From: Anaerolineales bacterium UBA5195
GTDB lineage: Bacteria > Chloroflexota > Anaerolineae > Anaerolineales > Villigracilaceae
DNA: 64,000 nt
Direction of reading: 5' to 3'
Assembly (NCBI GenBank): GCA_002412925.1
Contig: DHVZ01000045.1
Coordinates: 1,541-65,540 of the forward strand
Under the pieces are notes generated by a model that saw nothing but the letters and a program-made list of their open reading frames with translations, did no database searches and was not told the DNA's origin. Made by a program: the position numbers and the translations under genes. Positions 6,252 to 61,836 of the stretch are shown here, piece by piece; the first letter of the stretch is position 1, and each line of letters starts with the position of its first letter.

Positions 6252-6300
6252 CTCTGGAAACAAAAACCGGCTCATTGTGAGCCGGTTTTTGTTTCCAGAG
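6252..6300. terminator. Bidirectional terminator, long perfect palindrome between convergent genes
   Basis: CTCTGGAAACAAAAACCGGCTCA / TGAGCCGGTTTTTGTTTCCAGAG is a perfect inverted repeat of about 23 bp. The inner GC stem is flanked by an A-run and a T-run. Confidence 0.75.
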
Positions 6301-32483: not shown

Positions 32484-32616
32484 CGTTAATCGAAAATCAT
32501 TTTTTTGCAAGTGCGTTGCCCTAGCCCGAAAGGTGATCGTTGTTGAACGGGTTCATGCCAGGCGAAAGGACCTTTTCAACTGGGTGTGGCGCACTCAATC
32601 TGTTCGTGGAGTACCT

Positions 32617-35600
32617 ATGAAGACTTATTCTTACCGATTGGGGGTCGACATCGGTTCGATGACCGCAAAAGTTGTCATTCTTGACCGAAACGGTGAAATC
32701 AGTTTTTCAGCCTATCGTCGTCACAACACGGAAACGCTGGCGACACTGCAATCCATCCTGTGTGAGGCGTTGGAAAAACTTGGCAATGCCAATATCGAGT
32801 TCCTGGTGACCGGTTCTGCCGGGATGGGCGTGGCTGAAAAATATGACCTGCCGTTCATTCAGGAGGTGGTTGCCTCTGCCGAGGTGATTCACCAGCGCTA
32901 TCCGCAGGTGCGGACGCTGATCGACATCGGCGGGGAGGATGCGAAAGTCATCTTTTTCGATGAGCAGTACCGTCCCGACATCCGCATGAATGGTTCGTGT
33001 GCCGGGGGGACGGGCGCGTTCATCGACGAGATGGCAACCTTGCTGGGAGTGCCCGTCTCGGATTTGGACAGCCTTGCCAGCCGTTCTACCACTATTTATC
33101 CGATGGCCTCGCGCTGCGGGGTCTTTGCCAAAACCGATTTACAGAATCTGCTCAGCCGCCAGGTGCCGAAGGAGGATATAGCCGCGTCTGTCTTTCATGC
33201 GGTGGTGCTGCAAACACTGGCAACCCTGGCGCGTGGGCGGGATCTGCGCCCCACCTTGTTATTTAGCGGCGGGCCGTTTACGTTCATGCCCTCGCTGAAA
33301 ACGGCGTTCCTCAGGGTGTTGAACTTGTCGGAAACCGATGTGGTCAACGCGGAATCACCGGAGTTGCTGCCAGCGTTGGGAGCGGCACTTGCACAGAACG
33401 TGAGCCGAAGGGCGGGAACGATTCAGGGGTTGATCGACACTTTAGCGGAGGAAAAAGTCCATGCCCAGGCGCAGGTAAACCGGCATGAGCCTTTGTTCGA
33501 GTCAGCAAAGCAGTATCAGGATTGGGTTGAGAATCACAAAAATCAGCGGATTGAAAGAATTGACGTAGCAGATTGCGCTGATGATGATTATTTCCTCGGA
33601 ATTGATTCGGGCTCGACAACCACCAAGGTGGTGCTGATTGATGCGCAGGGACGGGTGGTCTTCAGCTATTATGCCAGTAATGGCGGGAATTCCATCAAAG
33701 CGGCACAAAACGGGCTAACGAAGTTGCGCGAGGCATTTGCCCCCCTGTCCTTCGGACATCCCCCCATTTTAGACTGCACTTCGTCGAAAATGGGGGGAAC
33801 GAGAGGGGTGGGGGAGGCAGGGAGGGGATCGGTGCCGCGCATCGCCCGCAGTGTGGTGACCGGTTACGGGGAGGATTTGATCCGCGCGGCGTTTGGCATG
33901 GATGAGGGGATGGTCGAGACGCTGGCGCATTTTCGGGCCGCGCAGGCCTTCGATCCGCAGGTGACTTTTATCCTGGATATCGGCGGGCAGGATATGAAGG
34001 TGATTTTCATCAAAGACGGGCAAATCCAGAAGATCGAGATCAACGAGGCCTGTTCATCGGGCTGTGGCTCGTTCATCGAGTCGTTTGCGCGCAACATGGG
34101 CTACGGGGTGGCAGATTTTGCCGGGCTGGCTTGCACCGCCGAGTCGCCGTATAACCTGGGAACGCGCTGTACCGTCTTTATGAATTCGCGCGTCAAACAG
34201 GCGCTGCGCGAAGGTGCAAAAATCAACGATATTTCGGCAGGGCTGGCTTATTCGGTCATCAAAAATGCGCTCTATAAGGTTTTGAAAATCACCAATACGG
34301 ATATTTTGGGCGAACAGATTGTGGTGCAGGGCGGAACCTTCCGCAACCCGGCGGTGCAGAAAGCGCTGGAAACACTGATTGGCCGCCCGGTGGTCTGCCC
34401 GGATTTGGCAGAGTTGATGGGCGCCTATGGCGCGGCGCTGACAGCACGCGATACATGGCAGGCGATGTCCCTTGAACTCGGCCCTCTCCCAGAGGGAGAG
34501 AGGGTAAGCACGTTTATTGGGCTGGAGAGCGTGGACGAGTTAGGCGAGTACCGGCGGCATGATATCCGCTGCCGGGGCTGCGAGAATAATTGTACGGTCA
34601 CAAAGCTCGGTTTCCCAAACGGGAACAGCTTCTTTTCAGGCAACCGCTGTGAGAAAATCTATTCCAATGGTGGGAAAGCCGAGCCCCGTGCTGGAACCGG
34701 GACTACCTCGCGGAAGGGCGTCAGTGTCCCGGCGCTCAAATATGCGCTGTTGTTCGACCGCGATGGTTCGCCCTCACCCTCCGCCCTCACCCAAAAGGGG
34801 AGGGGACTTAAGCCCCTCTCCCCAAGGGAGAGGAGCTGGGGTGAGGGAAATCCCCTTACGATTGGCATTCCCCGCGTACTGAATATGTTTGAGAACTACC
34901 CCTTCTGGCACGCACTATTCACGGAATGTGGGCTCCAAGTTCGGCTTTCCGCGCCATCGAGCAATGCGCTCTATCAGGGCGGGGCGGCGCAGATCATGTC
35001 GGAAAACCTGTGTTTTCCCGGTAAACTGGTCAGCGGGCATATCATGGACTTGATTCGGGCCGGGGTGGACCGCATTTTCTACCCGATGGTTTTTTACGAG
35101 AAAAGCGAATTCGCCGACGCGAACAATACCTATAACTGCCCGGTGGTCTCTGGCTACCCGGATGTTATCCGCTCGGCGATTGACCCTCAGCACAACCACA
35201 ACATCCCGCTTGACATGCCCGCGATCACCTTCCGCGATGACGATTTGCTGGATAAGGCTTGCACAAAGTACCTGCGCGGGCTAGGCATCCAGCCTGGCGT
35301 GATCAAAAAGGCGCTCAAAAAAGCGCGGGTGGCGCAGGACGAGTTCAAACAACAAGTGATTGAGATGGGTGCGGAAGTCATCCGCGATTCGGAAACCAGC
35401 GGGCGACCGCTGATCCTGCTGATGGGACGACCCTATCACATTGACCCGCTCATCAACCACAACGTCCCCGACTTACTCACCGATTTCGGCGTGGATGTGA
35501 TGACCGAAGACTGCCTCCCGATGACCGGCGAGGCGCTTAATAACCGGTATGTCATGACGCAATGGGAGTACTTGAATCGTTATTTCCACGCTGCACGCTG

Positions 35601-37122
35601 GGTGGGGCAGCATGAAAACGTCGAACTGGTGCAGCTTAATTCCTTTGGCTGCGGGCCGGACCCATTCCTGCTCGACGAAATCCGCGCGATCCTGGCGGAA
35701 TATGGCAAACGTCCTACTGTCATCAGGATTGACGAAATCGAGAGTGCCGGTTCGACGAAATTGCGTCTGCGCTCGATGATGGAATCCCTGCGACAGGCAG
35801 ACCATCACTCCACCCGTGTCCGCATCCCGCGCAAATCGACGAAATCCTACCAACCGGAGGACCGCGTCCGCACCCTGATCGTCCCCGATTTCTCCCCGTT
35901 CACCTCCCCGCCGATTGTGCGTCCGTTCATCGACCTGGGTTACCAGATTAAGCAATTGCCTGAGCCGGATCACGCTTCGGTGGATGTGGGGCTGAAATAC
36001 ACCAATAACGAAATTTGTTACCCCGGCATCATCACGCTCGGAGATTTGGTCAAGGCGCTCCAATCTGGCGATTATGACCTGAGCCGCACCGCGATCGGTT
36101 TTTCGCAGACTGGCGGGCAGTGCCGCGCAACCAGCTACCCATCTATGATCAAAAAGGCGTTGGTGGCGGCTGGCTTCGAAAATGTGCCGGTGGTGACGCT
36201 TTCCACCAACCTGGGCCTGACCAGCATGAATGACCAGCCGGGCTTCGATTTCAACCGGCGCGATTACATCTACAAAGCCGCGATTGGGATGATGTTCAAC
36301 GATGCGCTCTCGGAGATGTATCACTCGACGATCGTTCGCGAGAAACATAAAGGCGAGACGCAGGTTCTGGCAGATAAGTACCTCAACTGGTTCATGGACG
36401 GGACGATCCCTGTTACCAAGACCGCGCTGCTCGCATGGCTGGAACGCGCCGTGGAGGATTTCAATGCCATTCAAACGAACCCCGGGCAGCCTCCGCGGGT
36501 GGGGATTGTCGGTGAGATTTATGTCAAGTACAATGCTTTCTCTAACAACCATGTTGCCCGTTGGCTGATGGAGCAGGGTCTCGAAGTGGTCATGCCCACA
36601 TTCTTTGAATTTTTTGATGGCGGACTGGTCAGCAGCAATCATGCAGTCAAGACCCATGTTCAAAAGCGTGATACAAAATGGTTAATTGATATCCTCGGGC
36701 AAAAGTTGATGAGTTGTTTCCTGCGTCAGTTCGACCATGTGATGAGAGCCTACTCTCGTTACCATGCGCATCATAGCATCCACGAGGTGGCTGCGCACGC
36801 GCAGGAAATCTTGAGCCTGAACCATCAATACGGCGAAGGTTGGCTGATTGCTGGCGAAATTGCCTCCTTTGCGCGCAATGGCGTCAATAATGTCTTATGT
36901 TTACAGCCCTTTGGTTGTATTGCCAACCACGTCATCGCCAAGGGCGTCCAGAAACGCTTGCAGGAGAAGTATCCGCAGATCAACCTGCTCTTTCTGGATG
37001 CGGACGCGGGGGTGAGCGAAGTGAATTTCTTCAACCGGATGCACTTTTTCGTCAACCATGCGAAGAGTTCAGCCAACCCTGTGGGACAGTTTGCTGAATT
37101 GTCTTACGCAACGCTGGAGTAA
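32617..37122 (+). CDS. Fusion of two BcrAD/BadFG/HgdC-type activase ATPase domains with 2-hydroxyacyl-CoA-dehydratase-like (BCR/HAD family, DUF2229-type) domains
   Basis: Two ASKHA modules (LGVDIGSMTAKVV..CAGGTGAFIDE and LGIDSGSTTTKVV..ACSSGCGSFIE), a Cys cluster CRGCENNC, IGIPRVLNMFENYPFW, and NSFGCGPD. 1501 aa from ATG 32617. Confidence 0.85.
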   Translation: MKTYSYRLGVDIGSMTAKVVILDRNGEISFSAYRRHNTETLATLQSILCEALEKLGNANIEFLVTGSAGMGVAEKYDLPFIQEVVASAEVIHQRYPQVRTLIDIGGEDAKVIFFDEQYRPDIRMNGSCAGGTGAFIDEMATLLGVPVSDLDSLASRSTTIYPMASRCGVFAKTDLQNLLSRQVPKEDIAASVFHAVVLQTLATLARGRDLRPTLLFSGGPFTFMPSLKTAFLRVLNLSETDVVNAESPELLPALGAALAQNVSRRAGTIQGLIDTLAEEKVHAQAQVNRHEPLFESAKQYQDWVENHKNQRIERIDVADCADDDYFLGIDSGSTTTKVVLIDAQGRVVFSYYASNGGNSIKAAQNGLTKLREAFAPLSFGHPPILDCTSSKMGGTRGVGEAGRGSVPRIARSVVTGYGEDLIRAAFGMDEGMVETLAHFRAAQAFDPQVTFILDIGGQDMKVIFIKDGQIQKIEINEACSSGCGSFIESFARNMGYGVADFAGLACTAESPYNLGTRCTVFMNSRVKQALREGAKINDISAGLAYSVIKNALYKVLKITNTDILGEQIVVQGGTFRNPAVQKALETLIGRPVVCPDLAELMGAYGAALTARDTWQAMSLELGPLPEGERVSTFIGLESVDELGEYRRHDIRCRGCENNCTVTKLGFPNGNSFFSGNRCEKIYSNGGKAEPRAGTGTTSRKGVSVPALKYALLFDRDGSPSPSALTQKGRGLKPLSPRERSWGEGNPLTIGIPRVLNMFENYPFWHALFTECGLQVRLSAPSSNALYQGGAAQIMSENLCFPGKLVSGHIMDLIRAGVDRIFYPMVFYEKSEFADANNTYNCPVVSGYPDVIRSAIDPQHNHNIPLDMPAITFRDDDLLDKACTKYLRGLGIQPGVIKKALKKARVAQDEFKQQVIEMGAEVIRDSETSGRPLILLMGRPYHIDPLINHNVPDLLTDFGVDVMTEDCLPMTGEALNNRYVMTQWEYLNRYFHAARWVGQHENVELVQLNSFGCGPDPFLLDEIRAILAEYGKRPTVIRIDEIESAGSTKLRLRSMMESLRQADHHSTRVRIPRKSTKSYQPEDRVRTLIVPDFSPFTSPPIVRPFIDLGYQIKQLPEPDHASVDVGLKYTNNEICYPGIITLGDLVKALQSGDYDLSRTAIGFSQTGGQCRATSYPSMIKKALVAAGFENVPVVTLSTNLGLTSMNDQPGFDFNRRDYIYKAAIGMMFNDALSEMYHSTIVREKHKGETQVLADKYLNWFMDGTIPVTKTALLAWLERAVEDFNAIQTNPGQPPRVGIVGEIYVKYNAFSNNHVARWLMEQGLEVVMPTFFEFFDGGLVSSNHAVKTHVQKRDTKWLIDILGQKLMSCFLRQFDHVMRAYSRYHAHHSIHEVAAHAQEILSLNHQYGEGWLIAGEIASFARNGVNNVLCLQPFGCIANHVIAKGVQKRLQEKYPQINLLFLDADAGVSEVNFFNRMHFFVNHAKSSANPVGQFAELSYATLE
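33760..33797. repeat. In-frame palindromic element within the fusion CDS
   Basis: CCCCCCATTTT, 16 nt, AAAATGGGGGG: an 11-bp perfect stem. The same arms occur intergenically at 60405-60431. Confidence 0.6.
34482..34504. repeat. In-frame GC-rich hairpin element within the fusion CDS
   Basis: CCCTCTCCC-AGA-GGGAGAGAGGG, encoding GPLPEGER. Confidence 0.5.
34771..34850. repeat. In-frame compound palindromic (REP/MITE-like) element within the fusion CDS
   Basis: CCCTCACCC (twice) pairs with GGGGTGAGGG, and the inner CCCCTCTCCCC pairs with GGGAGAGG. It encodes PSPSALTQKGRGLKPLSPRERSWGEG. Confidence 0.6.
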
Positions 37123-58076: not shown

Positions 58077-58160
58077 TGCCGAAGGAGGGACTTGAACCCT
58101 CACTCCCTTGCAGGAACTAAGCCCTGAACCTAGCGCGTCTGCCAATTCCGCCACTTCGGC
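58077..58160 (-). tRNA. tRNA-Leu (anticodon CAG)
   Basis: The reverse complement folds by hand into a cloverleaf. Acceptor GCCGAAG/CTTCGGC, D-arm GCGG..CGCG, anticodon arm CTAGG-TTCAGGG-CTTAG, a long variable arm, T-arm GAGGG-TTCAAGT-CCCTC, discriminator A. No encoded CCA. Confidence 0.9.
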
Positions 58161-58828: not shown

Positions 58829-58995
58829 AGCCATATTTTTGGCTCTCTGGGAATCTCTGTGGTAAAGCGGTGCTATTCACCCCGTACCCTGCAAACGCAT
58901 CAGGGCAAGCGCCCATCGGGGCAGACGGGAAAACTCTGGAGATCCATTTTTTTATCAAAAGATTGTACCTACTGGTAGGCATACAAGGAGAAGCA

Positions 58996-60363
58996 ATGAA
59001 GCAACACTGGTCACAAAACGCGATTTTTTATCACATCTACCCACTGGGGTTTTGCGGTGCGCCGGAACAGAACGATTTCCATTCGACGGCGGTTCCACGG
59101 CTGGACAAAATCAAGGATTGGATCGGGCATTTGCGCGATTTACAGGTTAACGCACTTTACCTGGGCCCGGTTTTTGAATCAACAGCGCATGGTTACGATA
59201 CTGCCGATTATTTCTGGGTCGACCGGCGGCTGGGAACAAACGAGACCCTCCGCGAACTCGTCCAGGAATTGCACCGTAACAACATCAGGGTTATCCTGGA
59301 TGGCGTTTTCAACCACGTGGGGCGCGATTTCTGGGCCTTCCGGGATGTTTTGCAGAACCGGGAAAACTCTTTGTATCGGAACTGGTTCAAAGGTTTGAAT
59401 TTCGGTGGTCACAGCCCTTATGGCGATCCGTTTGCTTATGAAAGCTGGAACGGCTCCTATGACCTAGTGGCGCTTAATTTCAACGAGCCAGCGGTGAAAG
59501 AGCATTTGCTCCTGGCCGTTCGGCAGTGGATTGTGGATTTCGAAATCGACGGTTTTCGCCTGGATGTGGCCGATTGCCTGGATTTGCAGTTCCAGCGCGA
59601 ACTGGGCTCTTTCTGCCGCAGTCTGCGGCCTGATTTCTGGCTGATGGGAGAGGTCGTCCATGGCGATTACCGGCGCTGGGCCAATCCAAAAACGCTGGAT
59701 TCGGTCACAAATTACGAGGTTTACAAGGGACTGTATTCCAGCCTGGTGGACAAGAATTATTTCGAGATAGCCTATGCCCTCAACCGCCAGTTCGGCGCGG
59801 GTGGGATTTATCGCAATCTGCCGCTCTACAACTTTGTCGATAATCACGATGTCAACCGCGTGGCGAGCAACCTGCCAAACCCGGCGCATTTATACCCACT
59901 CTATACCTTGTTGTTCACCATGCCAGGTGTGCCATCGATTTATTCTGGCAGTGAGTGGGGCTTGGAAGGAAAACGCACTGAGACGGACGACCGGCCCCTG
60001 CGGCCAAACCTTGACCTGGAAACCATCCGTCAAAACGCCCCGCAGCCGGGACTCGAAAAAACGATCGGCCGGTTGGCCCAAATCAGACAGGGTTCCACGG
60101 CGCTGAAAGCCGGGAACTACACCCAGCTCTTTGTCAGCCATGAGCAGTTGGCCTTTTCCCGACAAAAGGATGACGACCAGGTGCTGGTCCTGCTCAACGC
60201 GGCAGAAACGCCAACGGCGTTTGAGTTTCCCATGCCACTGGATGACGGCACCCGGTTTGTGGATTTGCTCAACAGCGGGGAGAGCTTTTCCATAACGGGA
60301 GGTAGATTGCGGGTGGAGTCGGTTCCCACACACTGGGCGCGGATTTTACAAGTCGCACACTGA
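58996..60363 (+). CDS. GH13 alpha-amylase-family glycosidase
   Basis: AAGGAG RBS and ATG 58996. Conserved GH13 regions DGVFNHVG, GFRLDVADC, MGEVVH and FVDNHD. Confidence 0.9.
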   Translation: MKQHWSQNAIFYHIYPLGFCGAPEQNDFHSTAVPRLDKIKDWIGHLRDLQVNALYLGPVFESTAHGYDTADYFWVDRRLGTNETLRELVQELHRNNIRVILDGVFNHVGRDFWAFRDVLQNRENSLYRNWFKGLNFGGHSPYGDPFAYESWNGSYDLVALNFNEPAVKEHLLLAVRQWIVDFEIDGFRLDVADCLDLQFQRELGSFCRSLRPDFWLMGEVVHGDYRRWANPKTLDSVTNYEVYKGLYSSLVDKNYFEIAYALNRQFGAGGIYRNLPLYNFVDNHDVNRVASNLPNPAHLYPLYTLLFTMPGVPSIYSGSEWGLEGKRTETDDRPLRPNLDLETIRQNAPQPGLEKTIGRLAQIRQGSTALKAGNYTQLFVSHEQLAFSRQKDDDQVLVLLNAAETPTAFEFPMPLDDGTRFVDLLNSGESFSITGGRLRVESVPTHWARILQVAH

Positions 60364-60404
60364 TGAGGTTGCCAGTTTCGTCAACTCAAAGAGGTTCTTG
60401 GCAT

Positions 60405-60431
60405 CCCCATTTTCCGGGTTTGAAAATGGGG
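60405..60431. repeat. Intergenic palindromic element of the CCCCATTTT/AAAATGGGG type
   Basis: 9-bp perfect stem with a 9-nt loop. No T-run follows, so it is not a typical terminator. It shares its arms with 33760-33797. Confidence 0.5.
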
Positions 60432-60582
60432 AGAAGATAGAGCAGATTTTGCGGATATGCCAAAAAGAATAATGGGAATTGCTAACACCAAGTTTCCCAA
60501 GGCTTCTAATTCCGGACGTTAAAAACGCCCGGATGGAAGGGATTTGACGCTATAATCAATCCAATATCTTCAGATTCTCGCA

Positions 60583-61836
60583 GTGTACAAAAAATTTCTC
60601 AAGATGGCAGACAAACTCAAATCTTTTTTTGAAAAATTTGTAATTTTGTTCATACAACCACTCTGGAGTTTCCTGTTCAGCTTCAGCGTCTATTTGGGCA
60701 TCTCCACCCTCAGAGGCTCTCCGTTTCGCGTGAGCGAATTCCCCTACTATAGCTATCTTGCAGATGCCTTTCTGCACGGTCAGCTCCATCTGAGATTAAT
60801 CCCTAAGATTCTCCACGACCTATCCTATTTTGGCGGAAAACATTATCTCTACTGGCCCCCCATGCCAGGTGTAGTTTTAATGCCCTTCGTGGCCATCTTT
60901 GGGGTGACCTTCAGCGATGTTCTCTTTTGTCTAACGCTGGGCGCAGTAAATGTTGCCTTAATCTCGCACCTGTTATCTCTCGCCCAGCACGAGGGCTTAA
61001 TCAACCTGAGCGTTTTTCAACGCGGGATTTTGGTTATCTTTTTTGCTTTTGGAACCGTCCAGTTTCCTATTGCGCCTCTCGGCCAGGTCTGGTTCATCGG
61101 GCAACTAACTGGTTTTTGTTTTGTAGCGCTGTCCTATATTGCCGCCCTCAGCTTGCGGGGGAGCAAAGCTTTCTTTTTTACCGGGCTGGCGATCGCCTGC
61201 GCCATGTTAACCAGGAACCATTTGATTTTTTTAGGGATCTGGCCCGGGGTCTATCTGATCTCAAAACACTGGGCTGACAAACCTCTGCTTTTACGTAACA
61301 CCGTACTCGCCTTGATCCCGCCCTTTCTGCTTGGAGTCCTTTTTCTGGTCTATAACTACCAACGCTTTGGGAGCTGGACGGAAGTCGGAATATCCTATCA
61401 CAAGATGGCAGAGTTTTTCATCGCCGATTACAAAAAATATGGCTATTTCAATATCCACTATGTTCCGATCAACTTCTATTACCAATATATCTTTTATCCA
61501 CTCCCCTTACGGCCAGAAACTCTCATGGGCGGCTCCTTGTTTCTGTTGAGCCCAATTTTCGCTGGGGTGTTTTTAGTCAACTTCAAGAAGGATCGGAAAC
61601 TGGATCTGATCACACTGCTAATTTCAATTTTGCTTACCAACCTCCCGATTTTATTATTAATGGGGACAGGTTGGGTTCAATTTGGACCACGATACACGCT
61701 CGATTTTACCGTCCCGTTGTTGCTCTTCTGCGCAATGGGCATCAAAAGAATGCCCAATCTCCCGCTTATCCTTTGTACAGCGATCTCTATTTTGCACTAT
61801 TCGATTGGTGCTTACTTATTTGCTACCGGTCTATGA
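60583..61836 (+). CDS. Polytopic membrane protein, GT-C-fold glycosyltransferase-like (ArnT/PMT-type); start uncertain (GTG 60583 or ATG 60604)
   Basis: At least 10 TM segments. The first periplasmic loop YLADAFLHGQLHL resembles GT-C loop motifs. Confidence 0.45.
   Translation: MYKKFLKMADKLKSFFEKFVILFIQPLWSFLFSFSVYLGISTLRGSPFRVSEFPYYSYLADAFLHGQLHLRLIPKILHDLSYFGGKHYLYWPPMPGVVLMPFVAIFGVTFSDVLFCLTLGAVNVALISHLLSLAQHEGLINLSVFQRGILVIFFAFGTVQFPIAPLGQVWFIGQLTGFCFVALSYIAALSLRGSKAFFFTGLAIACAMLTRNHLIFLGIWPGVYLISKHWADKPLLLRNTVLALIPPFLLGVLFLVYNYQRFGSWTEVGISYHKMAEFFIADYKKYGYFNIHYVPINFYYQYIFYPLPLRPETLMGGSLFLLSPIFAGVFLVNFKKDRKLDLITLLISILLTNLPILLLMGTGWVQFGPRYTLDFTVPLLLFCAMGIKRMPNLPLILCTAISILHYSIGAYLFATGL

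Follow-up and report, generated by a model that had tools for sequence, protein, structure and literature searches.

Palindromic repeats of several kinds have been described in bacterial genomes. The BoxC/PIT/TM_ECO repeat, a putative intrastrand-triplex motif, is reportedly the subject of a 2015 study by Holder et al. and of earlier work by Bachellier and by Hoyne and Maher. It is present in 3610 copies in 262 proteobacterial genomes, and the 23 TM_ECO copies of Escherichia coli K-12 are always intergenic, five as inverted pairs, with no associated transposase and with local instability around the copies; other G/C-rich triplex motifs occur in cyanobacteria (PMC4666352). The presence of in-frame palindromic repeats is established for Rickettsia, and intragenic REPs and MITEs (miniature transposable elements with inverted repeats) are reported from several phyla (PMC10969869, PMC3733652). 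The Rickettsia palindromic elements (RPEs) are established in-frame palindromic insertions (Ogata et al. 2000, 2002; summarised in PMC10969869), GTAG- or CGTC-tagged REPs are mostly intergenic with a minority in protein genes in several phyla, GTAG-tagged REPs being found in Chloroflexi among others (Di Nocera et al. 2013, PMC3733652), and bacterial MITEs (ERIC and others) make in-frame fusions (PMC10969869, PMC2229807). Here we analyse three palindromic segments, E1, E2 and E3, that lie in frame within a gene coding for an acyl-CoA dehydratase activase-related fusion protein in a 64,000-nt stretch of contig DHVZ01000045.1 from Anaerolineales bacterium UBA5195, of the phylum Chloroflexota (referred to as the window in the rest of the text). 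We regard E1 and E3 as likely copies, and E2 as a likely remnant, of short dispersed palindromic repeats inserted into DNA that codes for loops or linkers of a conserved multidomain enzyme and retained in frame. The features concerned are the following.

32533-37122, plus strand: host open reading frame (ORF), 1529 codons, uninterrupted, listed start GTG at 32533.
32617-37122, plus strand: probable true extent of the host gene, the acyl-CoA dehydratase activase-related fusion, starting at ATG 32617.
33742-33819, plus strand: E1, a 78-nt (26-codon) in-frame insertion encoding PLSFGHPPILDCTSSKMGGTRGVGEA.
34465-34504, plus strand: E2, a nine-codon insertion (MSLELGPLP, 34465-34491) and a hairpin at 34482-34504 (CCCTCTCCC-AGA-GGGAGAGAGGG).
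34771-34848, inverted pair: E3, a doublet of two TM halves and the spacer ACTTAAGCC, encoding SPSPSALTQKGRGLKPLSPRERSWGEG.
34771-34804, minus strand: left half of E3, TM (BoxC/PIT) unit CCCTCCCCT-TTT-GGGTGAGGG-CGGA-GGGTGAGGG, a pattern match with one mismatch.
34814-34847, plus strand: right half of E3, TM unit CCCTCTCCC-CAA-GGGAGAGGA-GCTG-GGGTGAGGG, a pattern match with one mismatch.
60404-60432, no strand assigned: intergenic core hairpin of the E1 family, TCCCCATTTTC-N7-GAAAATGGGGA, between the ORFs 58870-60363 and 60583-61836.

Pfam and NCBIfam place in the host protein a pair of BcrAD_BadFG (acyl-CoA dehydratase activase) ATPase domains, with DUF2229 after them. Its homologues are abundant in Anaerolineae/Chloroflexota assemblies, share 61-85% identity with it and are typically ~1420-1440 aa long. 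We aligned the ORF with 120 homologues, of which the 116 full-length ones were used to score presence and absence, and called window-specific any stretch absent from at least 85% of these 116 sequences; element boundaries come from a codon alignment that included five orthologue DNA sequences. Since residues 1-28 (the first 28 codons, 32533-32616) are without counterpart in any homologue of the alignment, ATG 32617 (MKTYSYRLGVDIG) is probably the true start.

The window-specific stretches comprise 33742-33819 (26 codons, E1), 34465-34491 (nine codons, E2) and, at E3, 34768-34818 plus 34825-34839. E1, E2 and E3 are missing from nearly all of the ~116 full-length orthologues, a few of which have related insertions at the same sites, and in the codon alignment the closest orthologue (P0001/L242, ~83% identity) carries neither E1, nor E2, nor the E3 element, so that the segments are lineage-specific, as the original prediction had expected of an orthologue alignment. 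The same prediction had placed three hairpin-forming segments in frame and had located them relative to the domain blocks of the protein. Both statements hold: the ORF is uninterrupted, the positions are correct, and the arms and folds were confirmed by folding the DNA and comparing it with 200 shuffles, the E2 hairpin being weak when taken alone (z = −2.6) and indistinct in a wider context (z = −0.3).

We searched the window with the TM pattern CCCTCNCCC N3-6 GGGNGAGGG N3 GGGNGAGGG, allowing one stem mismatch and a second loop (loop 2) of 3-5 nt. This yielded two matches, both in E3 and each with a 4-nt loop 2, compared to none in 200 dinucleotide shuffles. Because both halves fit the pattern, one on each strand, E3 reads as an inverted doublet of BoxC/PIT/TM_ECO intrastrand-triplex motifs, the triplex itself being putative. 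The outer arms of the doublet (34784-92 and 34839-47) are complementary at nine of nine positions, the inner arms (34811-22 and 34826-37) form a 12-nt pair, and inverted termini are present (CCCTCACCC/GGGTGAGGG). Folded as DNA, E3 reaches −25.6 kcal/mol (z = −4.25), and 0 of 200 shuffles did as well. By blastn, its right half (query bases 50-83) shares 94.3% identity over 34 nt with unannotated E. coli sites (best E = 5e-3 in 28 Gb; 62 genomes), and the only one of these sites looked at in detail (L243) lies between genes, downstream of mmuM, with a canonical unit and an inverted partner. A search with the 32-residue E3 peptide (HMMER, 1.84 billion proteins) returned six weak matches (E from 3e-5 to 2e-4), which are tandem-repeat short ORFs or unrelated repeat proteins, the query being too short and of too low complexity to count in-frame copies. 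Separately, the Rfam family whalefall-1 (RF01762) matches E3 at 34770-34836 on the minus strand below threshold (21 bits vs a gathering score of 37). Its consensus resembles the TM unit, with a CUCUCC/GGAGAG hairpin and AGGGUGAGG, and the whalefall-1 'RNA motif' may be a relative of the BoxC/TM repeats.

E2 fails the formal TM pattern, its third G-stem being missing. Exactly at the E2 site, the orthologue L003 carries a complete TM doublet, read in a different frame and ~83% identical to E3 over ~78 nt. E2 aligns base for base with parts of this doublet and has the identical left boundary, which is also that of a TM remnant found there in L015. We interpret E2 as what is left, after decay by deletion, of a TM-type element belonging to the same family as E3, and we count it as real only because it is a nine-codon window-specific insertion at a site that holds full elements in orthologues. 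The occurrence of an E3-like element at a non-homologous position in L003 is what a dispersed repeat predicts. Of the three element families that had been proposed, the repeat families as such are confirmed, but their number falls to two, E2 and E3 forming a single BoxC/TM family.

Copies of the palindromes had been expected elsewhere, and E3-type copies were found in L003, in the contigs L207 and L212 and in a low-GC metagenome. The central junction of the doublet was recovered from 16 metagenome loci. The 11 TM-doublet loci of one low-GC sample series (Ga0316204/5, GC ~0.40) are all intergenic, and two TM-doublet loci on GC-rich contigs, L207 and L212, fall within ORFs: the L207 doublet adds an 18-residue loop to an MtnA-like protein, as aligned to PDB 6a34, and that of L212 is located in the N-terminal portion of a BNR-like ORF. 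In a pattern scan of IMG/VR, the 3′ part of the TM unit was very common among the matches listed, the central-junction pattern gave one simple intergenic hairpin, and the strict three-block doublet pattern had no match. The 11 intergenic Ga0316204/5 copies, on L202-L206, L208, L213 and L215-L217, have different outer arms (CCTCTCCCTAACC / GGTTGGGGAGAGG), and those of L205, L215, L216 and L217 have similar longer flanks in common. The data suggest that the TM doublet of the Ga0316204/5 organism rides inside a larger MITE-like repeat.

E1 is of another kind. A hairpin had been predicted at 33760-33797; it is real, but the element is larger, the insertion spanning 33742-33819. E1 contains two hairpins, a small one (TGTCC-TTC-GGACA) and the main one at 33759-33798 (CCCCCCATTTT...AAAATGGGGGG), with a C-rich box ahead of them and a G-rich tail behind. 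The 16-nt arms of the main hairpin (33759-33774 and 33783-33798) are 94% complementary, and E1 folds as DNA at −15.1 kcal/mol (z = −6.5; 0 of 200 shuffles as good). A search of IMG/VR with the E1-arm pattern led to 23 contigs (L218-L240; GC 0.50-0.64). When oriented, these copies share an architecture that extends outside the search pattern, namely an (A/G)CCCCC(C)T box upstream, a frequent mini-hairpin, the main hairpin and a purine-rich stretch; in many of them a start codon follows 15-40 nt downstream of the hairpin, after a purine run resembling a ribosome-binding site. All of the shared features are present in the window copy, including TGTCC-TTC-GGACA, and its left flank approximately matches those of L225 and L233. 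The family architecture can thus be written as a C-box and an optional mini-hairpin, then CCCCCATTTT-loop-AAAATGGGGG.

A covariance model (R1) was built from 22 IMG/VR copies on unrelated contigs, with the window sequence excluded. R1 matches E1 over the whole model length, flanking boxes included, with 42 bits (E = 5e-9). The intergenic hairpin at 60405-60431, in which the arms of E1 had been said to recur and do, is recognised over the hairpin part only (26.7 bits, E = 5.6e-5; fold z = −3.8). R1 also recovers L004 8997-9102, which is intergenic between two minus-strand genes (37.9 bits), and L212 1831-1901, which lies between two ORFs (26 bits). Of the IMG/VR E1-type copies, 21 of 27 are outside long open frames. 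No Rfam family reached its gathering score for the window copies of this hairpin, and the Rfam microRNA matches were meaningless. E1 is thus an in-frame copy of a mostly intergenic, unnamed hairpin family that is separate from E2 and E3. In IMG/VR the E1-type hairpin is sometimes arranged in tandem or present twice per contig, and a regulatory or terminator role in a group of phages or Chloroflexota is conceivable. At 1831-2040 of L212, where a chaperonin-like ORF adjoins the BNR-like ORF, an E1-type hairpin and a TM doublet stand within ~100 nt of each other; genomes of one kind therefore hold both families.

We modelled residues 330-1010 of the host protein with AlphaFold2, using 70 homologues as alignment (mean predicted local distance difference test score, pLDDT, 77.9). 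All three insertions fall in modelled loops. In the second ATPase domain, E1 occupies the alpha1-beta4 loop, predicted as coil between helix 58-72 and strand 107-114 (pLDDT 35-42, with values below 50 at model residues 78-98), and E3 is placed in coil before the conserved TIGIP strand (model residues ~424-446, pLDDT ~49-62), both at low confidence. E2 follows the final helix of ATPase domain 2, in coil modelled with moderate confidence (pLDDT ~70). The predicted peptides spanning the insertion junctions are HPPILDCTSSK, GLKPLSPR and SWGEGNPLTIGIPR. We saw no evidence for removal of the segments by RNA or protein splicing.

The relation of these elements to the described systems differs from one system to the other. 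E3 resembles BoxC/PIT/TM_ECO in that both of its halves fit the consensus with one mismatch each and in their inverted-pair arrangement, and the state of E2 recalls the local deletion and decay of E. coli copies. It departs from TM_ECO by a loop 2 of 4 nt instead of 3 and by its host, a member of the Chloroflexota and not of the proteobacteria. Above all, unlike the always intergenic copies of E. coli K-12, E2, E3 and the copies of L003, L207 and L212 are inside ORFs and presumably translated; intergenic location describes the E. coli copies and does not define the TM motif. With RPEs, the elements share in-frame palindromes in unrelated housekeeping genes, without disruption and also between genes, and an extra peptide at fold-compatible positions, here by AlphaFold2 prediction. 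The original reading of the elements as RPE-like is supported to that extent, as a shared behaviour consisting of palindromic in-frame insertion absent from orthologues. E1-E3 are, however, 40-80 nt long compared to ~100-150 nt for RPEs, belong to a different phylum with a free-living lifestyle, and encode low-complexity coil instead of a conserved peptide. By size, host phylum and lack of a conserved peptide, membership in RPE-1 to RPE-10 is very unlikely, and the parallel, drawn with no RPE sequences compared, is one of analogy only.

Like REPs and REPIN doublets, E1-E3 are short palindromic repeats, and such repeats often form inverted pairs. Unlike GTAG- or CGTC-tagged REPs, they have no terminal tag: read directly, their sequences contain no GTAG or CTAC, and the single CGTC of E1 is at a loop edge and is not terminal. 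MITEs offer a further parallel as small non-autonomous repeats with inverted symmetry, found between and within genes and sometimes adding a peptide; in contrast to them, E1-E3 have no identified terminal inverted repeats related to insertion sequences (IS), target-site duplication or parent transposon, no IS search having been made. Neither the presence of BoxC/TM motifs inside reading frames nor a linker colonised by many families across the Anaerolineae was described in the literature examined.

The sites of E1-E3 also vary among orthologues. In 117 full-length sequences, insertions of at least eight residues are confined to few positions, and expansions of that size affect the E3 site in 13/117 sequences, residue 662 in 7/117, the E1 site in three and the E2 site in three. 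DNA sequences were read for six expanded linkers at the E3 site: five of the 13 and that of L003, which is expanded by fewer than eight residues. All six are palindromic, and they represent at least five unrelated sequence types.

E3 site, window and L002: TM doublet.
E3 site, L001: CAGATT-type palindrome.
E3 site, L241: palindrome GCAATCTCC/GGAGATTGC.
E3 site, L003, linker between ~5030 and 5080: GTAG...CTAC-tagged REP GTAGGGGCGAGCC-GGC-GGCTCGCCCCTAC, encoding RGEPAARPY.
E3 site, L242: small hairpin GTGCGTCG-GTG-CGACGCAC, with no family identified.

The L003 hairpin is a classical GTAG-tagged REP in frame. Linkers left unexpanded at 27 nt, which is the state of most orthologues, form no hairpin (dG ~0), and the moderately expanded linkers of L005 and L008 (42 nt each) have no significant hairpin (z = +0.4 and −1.3). 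The E1 site holds different hairpins in the window, L002 and L003, and decayed copies are seen at E2 in the window, at the E2 site of L015 and at the E1 and E3 sites of L002. At the protein level, P0020 and P0023 have a '...LRPYG' peptide at the E3 site similar to that of L003, and P0014 has a tandem 'LSRGERG' expansion there. Residue ~662 (window ~34516) is a second insertion hot spot, with carriers including P0116, P0100, P0077 and P0079, and its peptides, e.g. DFSRSVTTKVVTT and VTLSDSEGSLP, look like translated palindromic repeats.

The linker before DUF2229, and less so the two other sites, might have received palindromes of at least five unrelated types again and again across the Anaerolineae, with insertion perhaps targeted by structure (a hairpin entering a pre-existing hairpin or a fragile replication site) and not merely tolerated. 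We offer this as a tentative and rather doubtful proposal. If true, such presence/absence polymorphisms, being anchored by the reading frame, would give exact insertion and excision junctions from which the mechanism of TM/BoxC spread could be deduced; we know of no mechanism established for the dispersal of the BoxC/TM motif since the 1990s.

In the explanation that we favour, dispersed palindromic repeats would land in loop- or linker-coding DNA of the host gene and would persist where their net length is a multiple of three bases, where they hold no stop codon in the frame used, and where the added Gly/Pro/Ser/Arg-rich peptide is predicted to lie in disordered surface coil. The segments would have arrived by a copy-and-insert process, with a mobile status deduced from the distribution of copies; they would be translated, and would be neutral or selfish rather than useful. 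An alternative is that the hairpins are selected, either as mRNA or DNA structure at domain boundaries (e.g. ribosome pausing for co-translational folding of the ~1500-residue protein) or as beneficial flexible Gly/Pro-rich linkers, with repeats co-opted or a structured site maintained. The insertions are indeed at domain boundaries, every expanded E3-site linker read as DNA (window, L242, L241, L001, L002 and L003) is palindromic even though the types are unrelated, and hairpins of differing sequence occupy the E1 site in three orthologues. Yet most orthologues, otherwise conserved, have the short hairpin-free linker, decay is evident in several copies, carriers show no conservation of the encoded peptides, and the same families are mostly intergenic elsewhere. 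Selection for structure is disfavoured because of the decayed copies and the hairpin-free short linkers, and we consider it improbable.

Replication slippage or template switching (snap-back synthesis) within a hypervariable linker could also have generated the palindromes in situ, so that they would not be copies of dispersed repeats. Template switching can create hairpins de novo, the E3-site linker is an indel hot spot, no target-site duplications are seen, and the E3-site hairpin of L242 belongs to no identified family. A de novo origin would not, however, reproduce the sequences of E1 and E3: E3 matches a dispersed motif unit by unit, E. coli copies being 94% identical to it and a doublet elsewhere in an orthologue ~83%, and E1 matches its family model from end to end. 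We reject an in-place origin of these two elements because both match independent copies elsewhere. This alternative, which we hold to be highly improbable overall, is largely refuted for E1 and E3 and could survive only for E2 or for the small hairpins of other orthologues, provided that those genomes hold no related copies at other places. Scarcely credible, finally, is that the segments reflect assembly chimeras or that the gene is decaying and has ceased to yield protein. The source may be a metagenome assembly, and GC-rich hairpins can cause assembly problems; against this, the 1529-codon frame is intact, the flanking domains are 80-85% identical to those of orthologues with all catalytic blocks conserved, and comparable in-frame elements exist in independent assemblies from different projects (L001, L002, L003, L015, L241 and L207).

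Several observations weigh against insertion of dispersed repeats. A fourth window-specific in-frame insertion, at 34684-34710, encodes PRAGTGTTS, is absent from all 116 full-length homologues and lies in low-confidence coil of the AlphaFold2 model; it is not palindromic (z = +0.99), and not all indels of the host gene are repeat elements. Within the window the TM stems are confined to the host gene, and the exact arm words of E1-E3 occur nowhere else except in the related hairpin at 60404-60432. Dispersal of the TM motif is seen across other genomes and metagenomes; repetition across this organism's genome is presumed, and three elements in one gene form a striking cluster. No target-site duplication was definable in the codon alignment, where the linkers are too divergent, and no transposase or REP-associated tyrosine transposase (RAYT) was identified, nor are the elements known to be linked to a RAYT, with this link not tested and no IS search made. 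In a rough neighbour-joining tree, carriers are not monophyletic and the closest relative is without all three elements. There was therefore either repeated gain at the same sites or repeated clean loss, and the tree fits both.

Insertion of dispersed repeats at this locus would extend RPE-like behaviour to free-living Chloroflexota and to different repeat families, and BoxC/TM motifs, described as strictly intergenic in E. coli, can sit within coding frames. In genome annotation, translated repeats and not functional motifs are the likely explanation of unusual Gly/Pro/Ser/Arg-rich stretches in Anaerolineae proteins and of many small 'hypothetical proteins' made of such peptides. The insertions would mark tolerant loops of a large uncharacterised activase fusion, and they provide natural presence/absence pairs for the study of repeat gain and loss.

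Elsewhere in the window, an inverted repeat with perfect 23-nt arms (CTCTGGAAACAAAAACCGGCTCA and its complement) and a loop of 3 nt lies at 6252-6300, and a transfer-RNA gene occupies 58077-58160 on the minus strand.

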